A stretch of DNA of 64,000 nt from assembly GCF_024223415.1 (NCBI RefSeq), contig NZ_CP100501.1, one strand, 5' to 3'. Shown piece by piece: positions 1-7,710 of the stretch. The position numbers were made by a program, and so were the translations under genes. Under the pieces are notes generated by a model, which was not told where the DNA came from, did not search any database, and saw only the letters and a list, made by a program, of their open reading frames with translations. Numbering within the stretch: position 1 is the first letter of the stretch; each line of letters begins with the position of its first letter. This DNA is from Escherichia coli (GTDB taxonomy: Bacteria > Pseudomonadota > Gammaproteobacteria > Enterobacterales > Enterobacteriaceae).

Positions 1-873
1 GTGGCGGCCCTGAACCAGACCTCATTTACTGAAAGCACATACCGTCAGGTAAAGAACCCGAATCCGGTGTTCACACCCCGTGAAGATGCCGGAACGCTGA
101 AGTTCTGCGAAAAACTGATGGAAAAGGCCGTGGGCTTCACCTCCCGTTTTGATTTTGCCGCGCATGTGGCGTATGCCCGTTCGCGCGGCCTGCGCCGGCG
201 TATGCCGCCGGTGCTGCGCCGCCGGGCGATTGATGCGCTGCTGCAGGGGCTGTGTTTCCACTATGACCCGCTGGCCAACCGCGTGCAGTGCTCCATCACC
301 ACGCTGGCCATTGAGTGCGGACTGGCGACGGAGTCTGAGGCCGGGAAACTCTCCATCACCCGTGCCACCCGTGCCCTGAAGTTCCTGTCTGAGCTGGGGC
401 TGATAACCTACCAGACGGAATACGACCCGACAATTGGCTGTAACATCCCGACCGACATCACGTTCACGCCGGCACTGTTTGACTCACTCGATATCTCAGA
501 AGAGGCAGTGGCTTCCGCACGCCGCAGCCGCGTGGAATGGGAAAACAGGCTGCGCAAAAAGCAGGGGATGGATGCGCTGGGTATGGATGAACTGATAGCG
601 AGGGCCTGGCGTTTTGTGCGCGAGCGTTTCCGCAGTTATCAGGCAGAGCTTAAGTCCCACGGCATGAAACGTGCCCGTGCGCGCCGCGATGCAGGCAGGA
701 CCCGTCAGGACATTGTCACCCTGGTGAAACGGCAGCTGACACGTGAAATCGCGGAAGGGCGTTTCCGCGGAAGCCTGGAGGCCGTGAAGCGCGAAATCGA
801 CCGTCGCGTGAAGGAACGCATGATAATGTCGCGGAACAACAACTACACACGGCTGGCCACTGCCTCACCCTGA
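1..873 (+). CDS. repA1: IncFII replication initiator RepA1 (start at window edge, possibly 5'-partial)
   Basis: Translation (..[44 protein letters not shown]) closely matches remembered R100/IncFII RepA1; ORF begins at base 1 with GTG. Confidence 0.9.
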
Positions 874-1048
874 GTTTGACCTCATCTGAATAATCCGGCC
901 TGCGCCGGAGGCTTCCGCACGTCTGAAGCCCGGTGACGCACAAAAAAGCAGCACAGCACACAAAAAACAGCCTCATTATCTGCCTTCCGGCTCGCCTTGC
1001 TCCCCCTGTTTTTCACGCAAAACAGGTATCACAGACGGGGAATTCTGT

Positions 1049-1057
1049 TTATCCACA
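1049..1057. promoter_or_regulatory. DnaA box TTATCCACA within IncFII-type oriR region (about 900-1260, AT-rich stretch at 1140-1200)
   Basis: Exact DnaA box consensus about 175 bp downstream of repA1 stop, followed by AT-rich tract; matches IncFII ori organisation. Confidence 0.5.
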
Positions 1058-1486
1058 TTTAACTGCAAGGGACTTCTCCGTAAGGTTACAACCGTTCATG
1101 CTATAAAGCGCCAGCCGCAGGCGTTACAGGGTGCAATGTTTCTTTTAAACCCCAGTAATATATTTCCTTTAAACTACTTAATTACTTCCATTTAAAAAAA
1201 AGACCTGTTCAGTGCCTGTCCTGTGGACAGACAAATATGCACCTCCCACGCTGACGCGCGGGCCCCAAACCTCACCGTTCTGGAACCACAACAAAAAACA
1301 TCAGAAATAAAAACACCACACAAACGCAGCACCGTGCCCACCCCTCATAACTGAAAAGCGAGGCCGCCCCCGCCCGAAGGGCGGGAACAACATCGCTTTT
1401 AATTATGAATGTTGTAACTACATCATCATCGCTGCCAGTCTTCTGGCTGGAAGTCCTCAGTACACGCTCGTAAGCGGCCCTCACGG

Positions 1487-1692
1487 CCCGCTAACGCGGA
1501 GATACGCCCCGACTTCGGGTAAACCCTCGTCGGGACCACTCCGACCGCGCACAGAAGCTCTCTCATGGCTGAAAGCGGGTATGGCTTAGCAGGGTGGGGA
1601 TGGGTAAGGTGAAATCTATCAATCAGTGCCGGCTTACGCCGGGCTTCGGCGGTTTTACTCTTGTGCCATATGTAGCTACATTATGCCGCCTT
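1487..1692. repeat. About 205-bp structured direct repeat, copy A (copy B at 44255-44462)
   Basis: Near-identical to 44255-44462 by direct comparison; contains inverted repeats GTCCCGAC..GTCGGGAC and CCGGC..GCCGG. Confidence 0.85.
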
Positions 1693-1827
1693 CCATGCCG
1701 CTCACGCGGCATCAGAACAATAAAACCAGCATTAAATGTATTTGCAAAAGTATGAGTAATACAGACTTGTTAACCGGTCCTTTCAGAGGTATCTTTAAGA
1801 CTTGTTAAATAGTCTCAAAGGTACGTT

Positions 1828-2079
1828 ATGCCTAACATCATTCTGTCTGACACCAGTGCAAGTGTCAGTGAACTGAAAAAAAATCCTATGGCTACAGTCA
1901 GTGCCGGAGATGGTTATCCTGTCGCCATTCTTAACCGGAATCAGCCGGCATTCTACTGTGTGCCTGCGGAACTCTATGAAAGGATGCTTGATGCGCTGGA
2001 TGACCAGGAACTGGTGAAACTGGTTACTGAACGCAGCAATCAGCCACTGCATGATGTGGACCTGGACAGTTATTTATGA
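1828..2079 (+). CDS. stbD: Phd/YefM-type antitoxin (StbD/RelB-like)
   Basis: 83-aa ORF immediately upstream of and overlapping (ATGA) a RelE-like toxin; small acidic C-terminus typical of antitoxins. Confidence 0.8.
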   Translation: MPNIILSDTSASVSELKKNPMATVSAGDGYPVAILNRNQPAFYCVPAELYERMLDALDDQELVKLVTERSNQPLHDVDLDSYL

Positions 2080-2363
2080 CTTATACAGTAAAATTCAGGG
2101 ATGATGCGCTCAAAGAATGGCTGAAACTGGATAAATCCATTCAACAGCAGTTTGCGAAAAAACTAAAGAAATGCAGCGAAAATCCTCATATTCCTTCCGC
2201 AAAACTGCGTGGATTAAAAGACTGCTACAAAATCAAACTTCGCGCATCGGGGTTTCGTCTGGTCTATCAGGTTATTGATGACATGCTAATTATTGCGGTT
2301 GTCGCGGTAGGTAAACGTGAACGTAGTAACGTTTATAATCTCGCCAGTGAGAGAATGAGATAG
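2076..2363 (+). CDS. stbE: RelE/StbE-family mRNA interferase toxin
   Basis: 95 aa; KLRGLKDCYKIKLRASGFRLVYQV..VGKRERS matches remembered E. coli RelE. Confidence 0.9.
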   Translation: MTYTVKFRDDALKEWLKLDKSIQQQFAKKLKKCSENPHIPSAKLRGLKDCYKIKLRASGFRLVYQVIDDMLIIAVVAVGKRERSNVYNLASERMR

Positions 2364-2466
2364 TTATCTTTAAAGCTGACTGATATTACTTTAAAAGTAT
2401 TTCTGATAGTTATGTTATTTTATTCCACAATACAGAATATTTTCTTTATTCTTTAAGGTCGTTTTT

Positions 2467-3057
2467 ATGATGAAAAATCCATTAGCTTATTTTCATATTG
2501 CCACCTTTTTATTGTCAGGTAAAAGTCGTAATCTGTCAGAATACTGGAAAGCCGAAGTCATCATGCGGGATAAGTTTGTCTTACACCGCCTGATAAGAAA
2601 CGGGTTGCAGAGACAACGAGGCTTTCTGATGTGGTGGCGCCTGGCCAATGAGATGTTTATCTCTGGAAACCAAAAACAAAGGAAATGTGCGATAAAGATA
2701 AAAAATGCACTTATGGAACGGTATGGATGTGATATCGGCCTGGGCGCGCGGATTGGTAAAGGCCTCATGTTACCTCATCATGCAGGAATCGTCATTCATG
2801 GTAATGTTGATATCGGTGAGAATGTCATTATACGGCAGAATACAACCATTGGTGAAAAGGTTCCTGACAGTAAGGAAAACTATATTGTTATTGGCGATAA
2901 TGTCGATATTGGTGCCCATACATGTATTATTGGGTTAAATGTGAAAATCGGAAGTAATGTTAAAATCGGGGCAATGTCTTTTATTATGGAAGATGTACCT
3001 GATAACTGTACTTATGTCACCAGGAAGGAATCCAGAGTGATAATTCGCGAACAGTAA
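2467..3057 (+). CDS. Hexapeptide-repeat (left-handed beta-helix) acyl/acetyltransferase; true start may be internal Met near 2563
   Basis: Repeated [LIV]-G-x-x-x-x hexapeptides (IGENVIIRQNTTIGEKV.., IGDNVDIGAHTCIIGLNVKIGSNVKIG); low GC. Confidence 0.75.
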   Translation: MMKNPLAYFHIATFLLSGKSRNLSEYWKAEVIMRDKFVLHRLIRNGLQRQRGFLMWWRLANEMFISGNQKQRKCAIKIKNALMERYGCDIGLGARIGKGLMLPHHAGIVIHGNVDIGENVIIRQNTTIGEKVPDSKENYIVIGDNVDIGAHTCIIGLNVKIGSNVKIGAMSFIMEDVPDNCTYVTRKESRVIIREQ

Positions 3058-3159
3058 TGAAATACATGTTATCATTCTTCTGTTGGTGACTTTGCCGACT
3101 CAGATATATACTATCTGTATGTCGTGCATTATATATTAACGATACGCAGAGGTGTGTAT

Positions 3160-3825
3160 ATGGGCAGTGTTACAAAGAAACCGTCACCTGTTGTTATTAT
3201 TAAGAAAAAAAGACGAATTCTTTCTCATCAGGATGATGCCGTACAGGCAGTTCCTGATGATATAAAACCAGCGCCAGTAATGGAATTTAAAACCGACTCA
3301 TTACCTCCTGAAATACCAGCCACAGTGGCCGGTTCCCCGGAACAACAGAAAAAAACAGGACGTAAGAAGAAGAAAAAAAAGAAGAACAATAGATGGAATC
3401 ATGAGTTTATCCGACACAGTCTGGACTGTGTTAAAAAAACATTCCCTCAGTTACGGGCTGAAGAGGGGGGATATCATGCATTTAAAATAGGCATCTCAAA
3501 GGATGTCATGGCTTTTATTTCGGCCAGTCCTGAGTGTGGACTAACTGTAAAAGAATGGAATTGTGCTGTAAGGATGATTACTGGCGGTTACAAATATCTG
3601 CAGCGTATATCAGTCGCAGGTACTCCGCGTTATGGTCTGGATGGCAAAGTTCATGGAACTGTAACGGAGGAAGAAGCGCTGTATGCGCAGGCAAAACTTG
3701 AAAAACACACGCAGCGTTATAACGCCAGGATGAAAGAGACAGAAGATGCTCGTTGCAACCAACCATCGAAAACTGTTACACCGGACAGCAATTTGAAGGA
3801 CGCCTGCATTCATAACGGGGCATAA
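3160..3825 (+). CDS. FinO/ProQ-family RNA-binding protein with lysine-rich N-terminal region
   Basis: C-terminal half resembles remembered FinO (ITGGYKYLQRISVAG..GTVTEEEALYAQAKLEKHTQ vs FinO [35 protein letters not shown]); GAGG RBS before ATG 3160. Confidence 0.65.
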   Translation: MGSVTKKPSPVVIIKKKRRILSHQDDAVQAVPDDIKPAPVMEFKTDSLPPEIPATVAGSPEQQKKTGRKKKKKKKNNRWNHEFIRHSLDCVKKTFPQLRAEEGGYHAFKIGISKDVMAFISASPECGLTVKEWNCAVRMITGGYKYLQRISVAGTPRYGLDGKVHGTVTEEEALYAQAKLEKHTQRYNARMKETEDARCNQPSKTVTPDSNLKDACIHNGA

Positions 3826-3879
3826 TTATGTGAAATGCTGTCCCGCTATGGAATCAGAATTGAGTAACGACACGAGGTT

Positions 3880-4197
3880 TTGATGATTACTGTTATTATT
3901 TCTGAGGTGGATGGCTGGCGTGAATGGAAACACCGCGCCCGAACAAAGGATGCACAGACAGCCATCATCCGGGCTATGAATAAACATTTTCCACGATCTT
4001 ACAATTTTATCCCTGATGATATTGATAATGCACCTGTATTATTTGCAGCTGTAACACGTACACCGAACGTGAAAATAACCGGTCATATCTGGAAACCTAT
4101 GTGGAACAGGGGAATTTGCTGGAACGTCAAAGGTCCGCCAGTAATCATCACGCTCATCCAAGGGGCCGCTTGGAATTCGGAAAATAAACCACGTTAA
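3880..4197 (+). CDS. Hypothetical protein (105 aa)
   Basis: ORF only; low-GC context; no recognisable motif. Confidence 0.35.
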   Translation: MMITVIISEVDGWREWKHRARTKDAQTAIIRAMNKHFPRSYNFIPDDIDNAPVLFAAVTRTPNVKITGHIWKPMWNRGICWNVKGPPVIITLIQGAAWNSENKPR

Positions 4198-4202
4198 GAC
4201 TA

Positions 4203-4648
4203 TTTGGGGTTCTAAGCCGAAAACCTAGAAAATTCCGTAACCAAAGCCAGTAATTGACAGATTTGCATGACGTTGAATAGGTGACGGGTTATGTGACGAA
4301 ATCTGATGCAGAAATCGTTGTTTCAGTGACAGTCACTCAATCGGTCGTTTATGTGACAACCCATGCCGTTACTGGTCGCGGAAAAATCCAGGTTTCGGGG
4401 TTTGAGGCTCAGTGGAACAATAACCGCCGTTAAGCGGTCATTTTAAATAGCCAAAAATCAACCAGCCAATTTACATCGTGAATCTGCGTTCTTGGCTATC
4501 TGTTTTGGGGGGGCCAAGTTGGCTTTACTCATCCTGGCCGTTTGCGGAACAAACGACGTTGTTGATCTCAACAGATTGATTTACCTGTTATTGACCATTC
4601 AATTGAACCGCTTAACCGCCTTTTGAGTTCCACTACTCCCCAAACCCC
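4203..4648. mobile_element. Tn3-family terminal inverted-repeat-like motifs (miniature element or transposon-end relics)
   Basis: 4397-4437 GGGGTTTGAGGCTCAGTGGAAC..GTTAAGCGG and its inverted partner at 4608-4648 resemble the Tn3 38-bp IR; a third GGGG..AAAAC motif at 4203. Confidence 0.4.
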
Positions 4649-4849
4649 AAATAGCTGTCTAGCGCGAAAAATCACTGCCCGTAACGTATCATATGGCTGG
4701 TACGAATAAATTCTCACTTACTGCACCATAAACGTACACGTCAAAACCTTCCAAACATGCTTCAAAAATCAACAAATTCGCTGTATCGGAAATTTTGGCG
4801 TTTCCGGCGTACAACCCCGATTAGATATAAATGAATTAACGTGTGTGGT

Positions 4850-5326
4850 TTATTGGTCTCTGCCTTCTCCAGCAATGACGCAAGACTTTGACATACCATC
4901 AAAAAAATGATCGGCGAGCTCCAGAATTCGTGGATTATGAGTTGTAATAATAACGGTAGGGCAATGCTGCCGGATATAGGTAATGATCTTTATCGCGAGT
5001 TCTTCGCCAATAGAGGCCGTGGGTTCATCAAGTACGATAATCTTTTTCTTACGGGCTAGGGCGCGGGCTATGCATAATCGCTGGATCTCTCCACCACTCA
5101 AACCACTACCCAGAGGATTAATATCCCGGTCTAGGAAAGCAAGGAAATGTTCTCCGCAGTCCTCTTTAATTAACCCCAATGAATTCAGGATGCAAAACAG
5201 TTCATCATCGGGAAGAATGTCATCGGTTCCATACAGAATATTATCACGAATAGTTCCCTGCACCAGAACGGCTTTTTGAGGCACAACAGCAACGTCCTCC
5301 AGGATAGACGCACTCAACTCTGTGTT
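4850..5326 (-). pseudogene. 3' fragment of an ABC transporter ATP-binding protein gene, fused in frame to truncated IS2 insD
   Basis: C-terminal 160 aa of the 378-aa ORF carry ABC signature LSGGEIQR, Walker B IIVLDEP and H-loop ITTHN; N-terminal 220 aa are IS2 InsD. Confidence 0.7.
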
Positions 5327-6400
5327 CTTCGGTTCAAGCCCCAACATCCGGGCAAACTGCCGTGTTTCATTAGCCCGGTAGCATGAACCATTATCCGTCA
5401 GCCACTCTACTGGAGACGCCGGAAGCTCGTTGCCGAAGCGGCGTTCAACCGCTCCCAGCATGACGTCCTGTACTGTTTCACTGTCGAAGCCGCCCGTAGT
5501 GACCGCCCAGTACAGTGCCTCACGGTCACAGCAGTCCAGCGCGAACGTGACTCGCAGTTTTTCTCCGTTATCACAGCGGAACTCGAACCCGTCAGAGCAC
5601 CATCGTTGATTGCTTTCTTTCACGGCCACTTTGCCAGTATGTGCCCGCTTCGATGGCGGTACAGCGGTTTTTCGCTCAAGCAACAGCGCATTCTGGCGCA
5701 TGATCCGGTAAACACGTTTGGCATTGATCGCAGGCATACCATCAAGTTCGGCCTGTCTGCGAAGCAGCGCCCATACCCGACGATAACCATACGTGGGCAG
5801 CTCTCCGATAACATGGTGTATACGGAGAAGTACATCCATATTATCGGAGTGACGGCTGCGGCGACCATCTTTCCAGTCATCGGTTCGTCTGAGAATGACG
5901 TGCAACTGCGCACGCGACACCCGGAGACAACGGCTGACTAAGCTTACTCCCCATTCCCGGGCAATAAGGGCGCGTGCGCTATCCACTTTTTTGCACGCCC
6001 ATATTCAACGGCTTCTTTAAGGAGTTCATTTTCCATCGTTTTTTTGCCGAGCAGGCGCTGGAGTTCTTTAATCTGCTTCATGGCAGCAGCAAGTTCAGAG
6101 GCAGGAACGACCTGTTCTCCTGCGGCCACAGCAGTAAGACTTCCCTCCTGGTATTGCTTGCGCCAGAGAAATAGCTGGCTGGCTGCCACACCGTGTTGCC
6201 GGGCTACAAGGGAGACCGTCATTCCCGGTTCAAAACTCTGCTGAACAATAGCGATCTTTTCCTGTGTAGTACGCCGTCTGCGTTTCTCCGGTCCTAAGAC
6301 ATCAATCATCTGCTCTCCAATGACTAGTCTAAAAACTAGTATTAAGACTATCACTTATTTAAGTGATATTGGTTGTCTGGAGATTCAGGGGGCCAGTCTA
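5327..6400 (-). mobile_element. IS2 (IS3 family), truncated copy lacking the right end
   Basis: IRL TAGACTGGCCCCCTGAATCTCCAGACAACC (reverse complement ending at 6400); insC intact, insD broken after LGLEPK by comparison with the complete copy at 30173-33953. Confidence 0.85.
5944..6354 (-). CDS. insC: IS2 InsC (OrfA)
   Basis: 136-aa HTH protein, near-identical to the insC segment of the second IS2 copy (32801-33079). Confidence 0.85.
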
Positions 6401-6442: not shown

Positions 6443-7324
6443 TTAAGTTAACGTTACCCGCTGACGTCGATATTCTCGCGGAGAGCGATAACCCAACGCA
6501 CTGTGCGGATGGTTTTCATTGTAATGCTCGATCGCCACTGCAAGGTTATGCACTGCCGTTCTTACATTCGGTTTCGGCATGAACGCGATGTAGTCTTCCT
6601 TCATCGTTTTCACGAACCGTTCTGCCATTCCATTACTCTGAGGACTGCTGACTGCCGTCGTACAGGGCTCCAGATTCAGCTCTCTGGCGAACTGCCGTGT
6701 TTCATGCGCTCTGTACGCTGAATCGTTATCTGTCAGCCACTGGATCGACTGTTCCGGCACTTTATCGCCAAAGCGTTTTTCTATCGCGCCTAACATCACA
6801 TCCTGCACTGTCGATTTATCGTAACCTCCCGTACTGGCTGCCCAGTCGATAGCTTCACGATCGCAACAGTCCAGGGCGAACGTAACCCGGACTTTTTCGC
6901 CATCATCGCAACCGAACTCAAAGCCATTGGAACACCAACGCTGGTCGCTTTTATTAACCTCTACACGGCCTTTATGTGCCCGCTGAGGTCGTGATGGTTT
7001 GTCATGCAACAACAACAGGCTGTTTTCGCTCATTATCCGGTAAACGCGTTTTGCATTCACGAACGGCAGGCCTTCATTTCGGGACTGCCGTCTGGGTATC
7101 GCCCAGACACGGCGATACCCATATGTTGGCATATCGCCAATGATATCCAGGATGCGCGATAAGACTTCTGCATCCGCAGCCTCATCGCGTCTCTGACGCC
7201 GTTTATCTGTCTTGTTATCAGATGCCTTCATCCGTAATGTTAACTGCGCACGCGACACGCCCAGAACACGGCTTACCGGGGCTATTCCTTGTCCGAAGGT
7301 AACAAGGGCACATGCGCTATCCAT
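6443..7324 (-). CDS. IS3-family transposase OrfB (DDE integrase domain)
   Basis: 293 aa, about 65% identical by eye to IS2 InsD ([19 protein letters not shown]). Confidence 0.8.
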
Positions 7325-7710
7325 TTTCGCGATTGCGCGTACTCCACCGCTTCTTTGAGGAGCTCAACTTCCATTGTTTTCTTGCCCAGTAAACGCTGAA
7401 GCTGATTAATCTGCTTTATCGCAGCGGCCAGTTCAGAAGCAGGAACAACGTCTTCACCCGCAGCCACAGCAGTGAGACTTCCTTCCTGGTATTGTTTTTT
7501 CCACTTAAACAACAGGCTGGGCTGAATTCCATGCAAACGCGCCACGTGAGACACCGTCATGCCTGGCTCCATAGTCTGTTGAATAATTGCGATTTTTTCC
7601 TGAGGTGTTTTACGTTTACGCACCTCTTTTCCTAACAAAACGCCAGCCATCTCAAAATTAGAACTAGTGTTAGACATATATCCAAGCCTACCTCTTATTT
7701 TAAGATACAT
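7282..7710 (-). CDS. IS3-family transposase OrfA
   Basis: 142 aa, homologous to IS2 InsC; overlaps OrfB as expected for -1 frameshift expression. Confidence 0.8.

Follow-up and report, generated by a model that had tools for sequence, protein, structure and literature searches.

Some plasmids, as FopA and PcnR show, add a protein layer to the antisense control of their copy number, a layer that makes resistance plasmids less costly and more persistent. In vivo, Inc RNA is among the ligands of FopA, which accelerates Inc–repZ pairing in vitro and also binds chromosomal RNAs (PMC7491321); Inc makes up ~80% of the RNA that FopA binds (PMC9977716). PcnR represses RepA, and its deletion raises IncI2 copy number ~10-fold and alters transfer frequency 8-fold. 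It acts on a stem-loop of the leader mRNA and does not require the antisense RNA (PMC8053102). FinO domains, common to both, characteristically bind terminator-like hairpins with 3′ U tails through structure-based recognition (PMC9674577). Here, we followed up a prediction made on a 64,000-nucleotide stretch of Escherichia coli plasmid DNA (NZ_CP100501.1, assembly GCF_024223415.1; hereafter, the window), in which a gene for a FinO-like protein lies near a replicon, between genes for a hexapeptide acetyltransferase and a small protein (orf105). The original prediction held that this protein could influence copy number, fertility, or host RNA regulation. Our comparisons identify the gene as an uncharacterized, divergent relative of FopA and PcnR and not as a new system, and the copy-number idea would, by analogy, essentially equal what has been published for those two proteins.

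The presence of a FinO/ProQ domain, as predicted, was borne out by profile search and modeled fold. The protein matched PF04352 at E = 5.5e-13 (model positions 7–108/109; residues 99–204 of a 233-amino acid open reading frame, ORF). An AlphaFold model built on a 78-sequence alignment had a predicted local distance difference test score (pLDDT) of 82.8 overall and >95 across residues 81–200, which form the FinO domain of the 221-amino acid protein; the N-terminal 80 residues, a basic region, and the last ~20 were disordered. In a Foldseek search against the PDB, the best 27 matches were all FinO-domain structures (FinO 1DVO, RocC, Lpp1663, NMB1681, and the ProQ N-terminal domain), with target-normalized template modeling scores up to 0.85 and a root-mean-square deviation of ~2.3 Å; FinO 1DVO was the best match (E = 1.7e-6). 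Tyr146 and Arg157 align with the Tyr/Arg pair of ProQ and are at least 90% conserved in the 78-sequence family alignment. FinO sensu stricto was rejected given a score of 34.7 bits against an NCBIfam cutoff of 136, a gene position that is not distal in a tra operon, and a different N-terminal region. ProQ was rejected as well, with 36.9 bits against a cutoff of 127, no ProQ-type C-terminal domain in the AlphaFold model, and a plasmid-borne gene. The protein had been described as a second FinO-like protein, a wording that found no support: tblastn with a FinO query of uncertain accuracy detected no finO in the 64 kb, which makes for a weak negative, and a scan of the 20 larger ORFs found no tra genes.

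Membership in the FopA/PcnR clade of FinO-domain proteins is nearly certain. Pairwise E-values against clade members range from 1e-26 to 1e-45, with 34% full-length identity to FopA of pCol1B9 (E = 3e-35), 31% to an IncI2 PcnR-type protein, and 44% to the nearest sampled relative, an uncharacterized protein from an S. diarizonae IncFII plasmid. A neighbor-joining tree (167 trimmed columns, no bootstrap) places the window protein on its own deep branch within the clade, away from FinO and ProQ. The N-terminal PVVIIKKKRR motif is present as KKPSPVVIIKKKRR, corresponding to the clade form PV(I/V)VVKKxR, and is found in many database relatives; across 11 diverse FopA/PcnR-clade proteins, P10, K16, and R18 are invariant and K15 is retained in at least 90%. 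Both positively charged N-terminal stretches, KKPSPVVIIKKKRR and the lysine-rich KKTGRKKKKKKKNN, are there; two such stretches and the same Tyr/Arg pair have been described for FopA (PMC7491321). Genomic position follows the same pattern. In seven of nine sampled contexts, the clade member lies 0.8–4.2 kb from a rep gene under antisense RNA and leader peptide control, in IncI-gamma/K1, IncI2, IncK2/Z, S. diarizonae IncFII (true CopA), Klebsiella IncFII (copB and tap), and window-type replicons, and the window gene itself starts 2.3 kb downstream of repA.

The family has few members. When 1.84 billion cluster representatives were searched exhaustively, as was needed because a word-index protein search gave close relatives only, 127 matches were returned at E < 1e-3 and 30 at E < 1e-10. 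Copies with at least 80% identity occur in ~128 of 72,556 plasmid records, 122 of which span at least 80% of the protein, and other clade branches occur in ~3,060 more. A copy with at least 99% identity is found in 104 records, and the 90% cluster holds 806 member sequences. The 666-nt gene is rich in A7–A8 runs, with four (3205–3211, 3349–3355, 3373–3380, and 3433–3439) against a frequency of 0.22/kb in the window. Independent frameshifted alleles at A-runs occur in pO145 and in the plasmid of strain 2015C-3121; in the second basic stretch, the lysine count varies in frame (seven in the window, six in pECOED). Such variation could reflect a mutational hot spot or slippage-based on/off switching, and some database fragments could be sequencing errors. 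The last ~20 codons (~3770–3825) are read in two alternative frames (...NQPSKTVTPDSNLKDACIHNGA versus ...NQPSTNCHTGQQFEGRLHS) among otherwise 99% identical plasmids; the tail is therefore evidently unconstrained.

The adjacent replicon, originally called IncFII, is an IncZ-type chimera by sequence comparison, with a predicted I-complex repZ-type leader and pseudoknot joined to an IncFII-like RepA in the first ~40 nt. The IncFII label holds for the RepA1-type initiator, which is annotated as an IncFII-family RepA and shares ~91% nucleotide identity with thousands of IncFII plasmids from ~nt 40 onward, but not for the leader: a true IncFII/FIC replicon aligns from nt 46 only, and window nt 1–45 stay unaligned. 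RepA is 100% identical to that of the IncK2/Z plasmid pDETEC33, and window 1–5000 is 99.78% identical to pCh101 and 98.3% to pECOED. Directly upstream of repA, Rfam PK-repZ (RF01087) scores 167 bits in pCh101 and pGF60-A and 161 bits in pDETEC33, and homologous leaders precede repA in three further plasmids. A PK-repZ leader, not CopA/tap, was found in all six sampled plasmids with the window repA and block, five of them complete and that of pECOED cut by the record start; the CopA model reaches just 35 bits in the upstream region of pCh101 (threshold, 60). The leader region occupies 4238–4413 of comparison record L001. A 29-codon RepY-like leader ORF, read in pCh101, stops 13 nt into repA at the TGA of window 11–13; this ORF begins outside the window, which shows its last 13 nt only (nt 1–13). 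Placement of the gene beside an antisense-RNA-controlled replicon, as predicted, was thus substantiated through near-identical plasmids, and no Rfam RNA family was detected inside window 1–5000, even at E up to 1. The plasmid backbone is I-type. The region 3′ of repA resembles that 3′ of repZ in I-complex plasmids (Table 1), a likeness to I-complex maintenance regions is seen at the far end of the window, and MOB-suite types five of the sampled plasmids as IncK2/Z, MOBP, and MPF_I; pGF60-A, which is not in PLSDB, has no typing on record. Mosaics between IncFII and IncB/K/Z replicons are a known kind, and the hybrid assignment draws on our own comparisons together with the summary in PMC5466382.

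Related plasmids show other arrangements of the neighborhood. pDETEC33 shares RepA and the origin region (91–100%) with the window but carries a yacAB toxin–antitoxin pair; after its acetyltransferase gene comes a classical fopA in the opposite orientation, encoding a protein 91% identical to IncI-gamma FopA, and then yagA. Since a classical fopA accompanies an identical RepA, one replicon can carry either FopA or the window-type paralogue. An avian pathogenic E. coli IncFIB/FIC plasmid contains a 97–100% identical counterpart of window ~1490–2787, covering the toxin–antitoxin pair and the N-terminal half of the acetyltransferase, and there it sits behind a genuine copB–CopA–tap–repA region (CopA, 93.6 bits). 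The IncFII setting of the original prediction is thus realized for this cassette, though in other plasmids. An insertion sequence (IS) splits the acetyltransferase gene in avian E. coli plasmids, in which the FinO-like gene and orf105 are found at another place, both intact and 99.3% identical. A junction query for replicon-adjacent versus IS-displaced copies contained an IS1 part too short to tell them apart. In pO145, copB is present, repA is reduced to its last 30 codons, and phd and the FinO-like gene are frameshifted.

A candidate RNA partner is encoded on the strand antisense to leader stem-loop I, which is predicted to fold into a long hairpin with a U-rich tail (−31.9 kcal/mol, z = −4.3). 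Across four replicon variants, compensatory changes at 5 of 22 pairs keep this hairpin (RNAI) paired. Its G/C-rich lower stem, loop, and UUUUCCUUU tail match Inc of pCol1B9, with lower stem and tail identical. CopA stem-loop II of the avian E. coli plasmid is built in the same way (CCCCGGUAAUCUU...AAGAUUAUCGGGG, a CGCCAA loop, and a U-rich tail), and from this resemblance one protein could plausibly serve both RNAI-type and CopA-type control. Differing upper stems in pCh101 and pDETEC33 had suggested that the FopA type covaries with the RNAI specificity region; this idea was discarded, as the window-type protein occurs with at least three different upper stems. Given such variants among plasmids that share the window-type protein, the protein probably does not read the upper stem, which fits structure-based recognition of terminator hairpins by FinO domains (PMC9674577).

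From homology, synteny, and RNA shape, we infer an RNA target, repression of RepA, and an effect on copy number. The window protein may well, by analogy with FopA, chaperone an antisense RNA onto the repA leader and thereby lower RepA synthesis and copy number, a reading that we hold to be somewhat better supported than not. The FinO domain would grip the antisense RNA of the replicon by its lower stem, rich in G/C, and its U-rich 3′ tail; this RNA would be the Inc/RNAI hairpin in IncZ-type plasmids and the homologous CopA stem-loop II in IncFII/FIC plasmids with the same cassette. The basic, disordered N-terminal region would aid pairing with the repA leader mRNA; after pairing, the short leader ORF would go untranslated and the activating pseudoknot would not form. 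The predicted outcome is less RepA, with copy number and plasmid cost kept low. A consistent anecdote comes from pO145, which has lost most of repA and in which a frameshift has turned the FinO-like gene into a pseudogene.

Several observations weigh against this proposal. Identity to FopA and PcnR is just 31–38%, and those two proteins themselves differ in mechanism, so the target is not transferable by homology. Neither the leader nor the antisense region falls within the window; their presence is deduced from plasmids 98–99.8% identical over repA and the block and from the 13 nt of the leader ORF that the window retains. Classical FopA serves plasmids whose RepA is identical, and the window protein is therefore not specifically required by the replicon. 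The cassette also accompanies a CopA-type replicon at 97–100% identity, so the protein must accept both RNAs unless its role is independent of any one control system. IS elements have carried the gene away from the replicon in avian E. coli IncF plasmids, where it is still intact, and frameshifted alleles exist elsewhere.

One alternative, though unlikely in our estimation, is that the protein directly binds a stem-loop of the repA leader mRNA near the start of the leader ORF and needs no antisense RNA. PcnR belongs to the same clade and acts in this way (PMC8053102), and the window type is no nearer to FopA than to other clade branches, its nearest sampled relative being the 44% identical S. 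diarizonae protein. Direct leader binding fits less well with the preference of FinO domains for terminator-like hairpins with 3′ U tails (PMC9674577), since the RNAI hairpin is exactly of this form and its relevant parts are invariant. The same protein also occurs with two leader types, PK-repZ and tap/CopA, that resemble each other less in the mRNA leader than they do in the antisense hairpin.

Equally improbable is that the main targets are other RNAs, such as transfer or pilus mRNAs, transcripts of the adjacent toxin–antitoxin or acetyltransferase genes, or host small RNAs. Precedents include the chromosomal RNAs bound by FopA (PMC7491321) and the 8-fold shift in transfer frequency upon pcnR deletion (PMC8053102). 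The cassette occurs with two types of replicon control and, after IS rearrangement, far from the replicon, and RNAI upper-stem variants show no covariation with the protein type. Set against these points are the ~80% share of Inc in FopA-bound RNA (PMC9977716), the recurrence of replicon proximity in at least five plasmid groups, and the lack of any detected Rfam family in window 1–5000. We consider it slightly less probable again that the protein, a divergent paralogue, does more than substitute for FopA and is a generalist chaperone for CopA/RNAI-class antisense hairpins that couples or cross-regulates the copy numbers of co-resident IncF and IncI/K/Z plasmids. This idea arises because the cassette (toxin–antitoxin pair, acetyltransferase, FinO-like gene, and orf105) lies at 97–100% identity behind both RNAI and CopA control regions; under it, the four A7–A8 tracts could make copy-number control switchable through slippage.

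More doubtful still is the view that the gene is a dispensable passenger in slow decay, without a significant role in the plasmid. The A-run frameshifts in pO145 and the plasmid of strain 2015C-3121, the many fragmentary database entries, the C-terminal tail in two reading frames, and sister IncK2/Z plasmids lacking the window-type allele would all be expected of such a gene. The abundance of near-identical and near-full-length copies given above speaks against decay, as do a ratio of nonsynonymous to synonymous substitution rates (dN/dS) well under 1 and the retention of pocket residues and N-terminal motif across a clade diverged to ~30% identity. Finally, a three-gene operon with a joint function (e.g., acetyltransferase and RNA chaperone in one pathway), suggested by the shared strand, gaps of 102 and 57 nt with no convincing terminator seen between the block genes, and an acetyltransferase gene that adjoins classical fopA in pDETEC33 too, is largely refuted and most improbable, as the latter two genes are convergent and hence not an operon, clade members in IncI1, IncI2, and IncFII plasmids lack acetyltransferase or orf105 neighbors, orf105 homologues stand alone, and the IS that splits the acetyltransferase gene in avian E. 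coli plasmids leaves the other two genes intact.

FopA-like chaperoning of antisense RNA, the reading that we prefer, concerns one gene of the three-gene block. By its comparative sequence contexts, the block is a mosaic and not a functional unit, and the acetyltransferase and the 104-amino acid protein are neighboring backbone or cargo genes outside the proposed mechanism. Neither was found beside FopA, PcnR, or IncFII-linked relatives in the IncI1, IncI2, and IncFII loci sampled, and a YafA or acetyltransferase counterpart near fopA or pcnR was rejected, as tblastn with the window block proteins gave none in IncI-gamma or IncI2 loci. The description of a low-GC block of three genes downstream of repA and the origin was accurate, with a GC content of 0.42 for the block (acetyltransferase, 0.40; FinO-like, 0.43; small ORF, 0.44) compared with 0.60 for repA and 0.52 for the window. 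All three ORFs lie on the + strand within window 2467–4197 as first given, and the NCBI pipeline calls them serine acetyltransferase, ProQ/FINO family protein, and hypothetical protein in near-identical plasmids. Two starts required revision. The FinO-like gene most likely begins at ATG 3160 (221 amino acids) rather than GTG 3124 (the 233-amino acid ORF), since an AGAGG Shine-Dalgarno sequence lies upstream, every homologue begins there, and it is the annotated start. The small ORF, preceded by a GAGG ribosome-binding site, starts at ATG 3883 and encodes 104 rather than 105 amino acids. In distant comparisons, dN/dS was 0.06 for the acetyltransferase, ~0.2 for the FinO-like gene (dS saturated), and 0.15–0.29 for the small ORF. 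Judged by these substitution patterns, purifying selection acts on all three, which are more than chance ORFs. Reading along the + strand of window 1–4200, the order is repA, origin region, Phd/YefM–RelE pair, acetyltransferase, FinO-domain gene, and small ORF (Table 1).

Table 1. Annotated features of the replicon-proximal part of the window and the basis for each
Feature	Window position	Strand	Basis
repA, IncFII-family replication initiator, IncZ-type hybrid origin	1–873	+	RepA identity, alignments
Origin-proximal region 3′ of repA, common to I-complex plasmids	1239–1712	.	93% identity to region 3′ of repZ in an IncI-gamma/K1 plasmid, 86% to an IncI2 plasmid
Phd/YefM antitoxin	1828–2079	+	YafN-like, 1.5e-10
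RelE/StbE-family toxin	2076–2363	+	NCBIfam RelE_StbE, 35.3 bits (cutoff 27.9)
Hexapeptide-repeat (left-handed beta-helix) O-acetyltransferase, CysE/EpsC/WcaB branch, 196 aa	2467–3057	+	NCBIfam, PDB, PHROG
FopA/PcnR-clade FinO-domain protein, putative RNA-binding, 221 aa	3160–3825	+	Pfam, AlphaFold, Foldseek, neighbor-joining tree
N-terminal clade motif KKPSPVVIIKKKRR	3178–3216	+	Conservation across 11 clade proteins
Second basic stretch KKTGRKKKKKKKNN, from A7 and A8 runs	3349–3390	+	Run listing
RNA-pocket codons Tyr146, Arg157	3595–3630	+	78-sequence alignment, ProQ alignment
104-aa protein without family match (orf105)	3883–4197	+	GAGG ribosome-binding site; in 149 plasmid records

The hexapeptide acyltransferase call was likewise confirmed. 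The best NCBIfam matches were EpsC (1.9e-24, 86 bits; cutoff, 150), CysE (4.6e-21, 75 bits; cutoff, 211), and WcaB (2.7e-15, 56 bits; cutoff, 195), and the match to solved serine acetyltransferases (2e-18) is confined to the C-terminal catalytic beta-helix part. An equivalog assignment to CysE, WcaB, or EpsC was ruled out, every score being below its cutoff and the N-terminal SATase helical domain of CysE not being covered by the PDB matches. The enzyme is therefore placed, from these matches, in the hexapeptide acetyltransferase superfamily without an assignable substrate. It is 86% identical at the amino acid level to the pDETEC33 copy, the comparison that yielded its dN/dS of 0.06. It also matches phage family PHROG 2154 (2.7e-63), and remoter copies (35–38%) adjoin tail-fiber assembly genes in phage-like plasmids; there are hints of a role in modifying a surface polysaccharide or phage receptor.

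The small protein orf105 had no match in Pfam, NCBIfam, PHROGs, or PADLOC. Its dN/dS values derive from comparison with 67–74% identical homologues that have no FinO-like neighbor. As an obligate partner of the FinO-like protein it was ruled out, because these homologues stand alone beside cysS or an IncR rep gene. A homologue in a Salmonella Waycross MPF_I plasmid (CP034708.1, 3482–5324; 72% amino acid identity) directly follows a plasmid-borne cysteine-tRNA ligase gene. PADLOC returned no matches and hence no support for a defense-system role. The toxin–antitoxin pair, which makes up the left portion of the mobile cassette, is exchangeable as well: 3′ of an identical RepA stand Phd/RelE in the window (1828–2363) and the unrelated YacA/YacB in the pDETEC33 record (7072–7633). 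In pO145, the phd antitoxin gene is frameshifted and relE is still open.

Elsewhere in the window, a 378-amino acid ORF at 4850–5986 (− strand) is chimeric, with an N-terminal IS3-family transposase and a C-terminal ATP-binding cassette (ABC) transporter ATP-binding domain that has its own annotation in pCh101; apparently, an exporter gene was truncated by an IS insertion. At the matching place, pECOED has colicin E5-like remnants and a lysis gene. Rfam ALIL pseudoknot matches at 19142–19258 (116 bits) and 38132–38218 (64 bits) are programmed-frameshift signals of the IS3 family. Window 8000–44000 holds cargo typical of poultry-associated E. coli plasmids, including an alpha-galactosidase/porin/sugar-use cluster, an fdrA/carbamate kinase cluster, an AIDA-I-type autotransporter (34207–37704), an eitA siderophore ABC transporter cluster (~39137–43097), and IS66 and IS91.

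With the window gene, the FopA/PcnR family reaches IncZ-type plasmids and, by way of the cassette that they share, CopA-controlled IncF plasmids, among them avian pathogenic E. coli virulence plasmids and an O145 enterohemorrhagic E. coli plasmid in which the gene has decayed. If the protein does control RepA, it would offer a way to act on how many copies of these plasmids are kept and how stable they are, and a natural test case for how a FinO domain chooses between closely related antisense hairpins. Of moderate interest in their own right are the exchange of FopA paralogues on one replicon, the occurrence of one cassette with CopA- and RNAI-type replicons, and the frameshift-prone A-tracts.

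Comparison with described systems places these features in context. FinO of F-like plasmids, which acts in FinOP fertility inhibition, shares the FinO-domain fold and the logic of an antisense-RNA chaperone. The window protein departs from it in an NCBIfam FinO score of 34.7 bits against the cutoff of 136, in a gene position away from the end of a tra operon, and in its N-terminal region, and neither finO, FinP, nor traJ was found within the 64-kb window. Uncharacterized FopA-family genes at true IncFII replicons (S. diarizonae pCFSAN030538 and Klebsiella IncFII KPC plasmids) lie 0.8–1.2 kb downstream of a rep gene preceded by tap, joined by CopA in S. diarizonae and by copB in Klebsiella; they belong to other clade branches (29–44% identity) and have other neighbors (e.g., DUF2913). 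In the S. diarizonae IncFIB/IncFII plasmid (CP075145.1, 2397–5477), CopA (90.7 bits) and tap precede an apparently two-part rep, with the 44% relative 0.8 kb downstream. In a Klebsiella IncFIB/IncFII KPC plasmid with Tn4401 (NZ_CP049601.1, 2906–6958), the FopA-clade gene lies 1.16 kb downstream of copB–tap–repA and overlaps a DUF2913 gene; this plasmid group is medically important, and the FopA-clade protein there is seemingly unstudied.

PcnR of IncI2 mcr-1 plasmids belongs to the same clade and shares the N-terminal motif, and pcnR, like the window gene, is co-directional with repA and lies ~2 kb downstream of it. By analogy, the proposed outcome would be equal, namely, repression of RepA and of copy number; the differences lie in an identity of ~31% and in the antisense-independent binding of the leader by PcnR. 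FopA (YafB) of the IncI1/IncI-gamma plasmid pCol1B9 in Salmonella SL1344 differs in that fopA is convergent with repZ and has yafA and yagA as neighbors, whereas the window gene is co-directional with repA and has an IncFII-like RepA beside it. The window protein, at only 34% identity and on a separate deep branch, also has a longer, unconstrained C-terminal tail, and its RNA binding is predicted. In common, the two have a FinO domain with the Tyr/Arg pocket, the N-terminal motif, and a lysine-rich stretch, and neither has a ProQ C-terminal domain or a FinO-type N-terminal helix. Both are plasmid-borne within a few kilobases of a replicon under antisense RNA and leader peptide control, and the likely ligand of the window protein, the RNAI hairpin, has the lower stem, loop, and tail of Inc.

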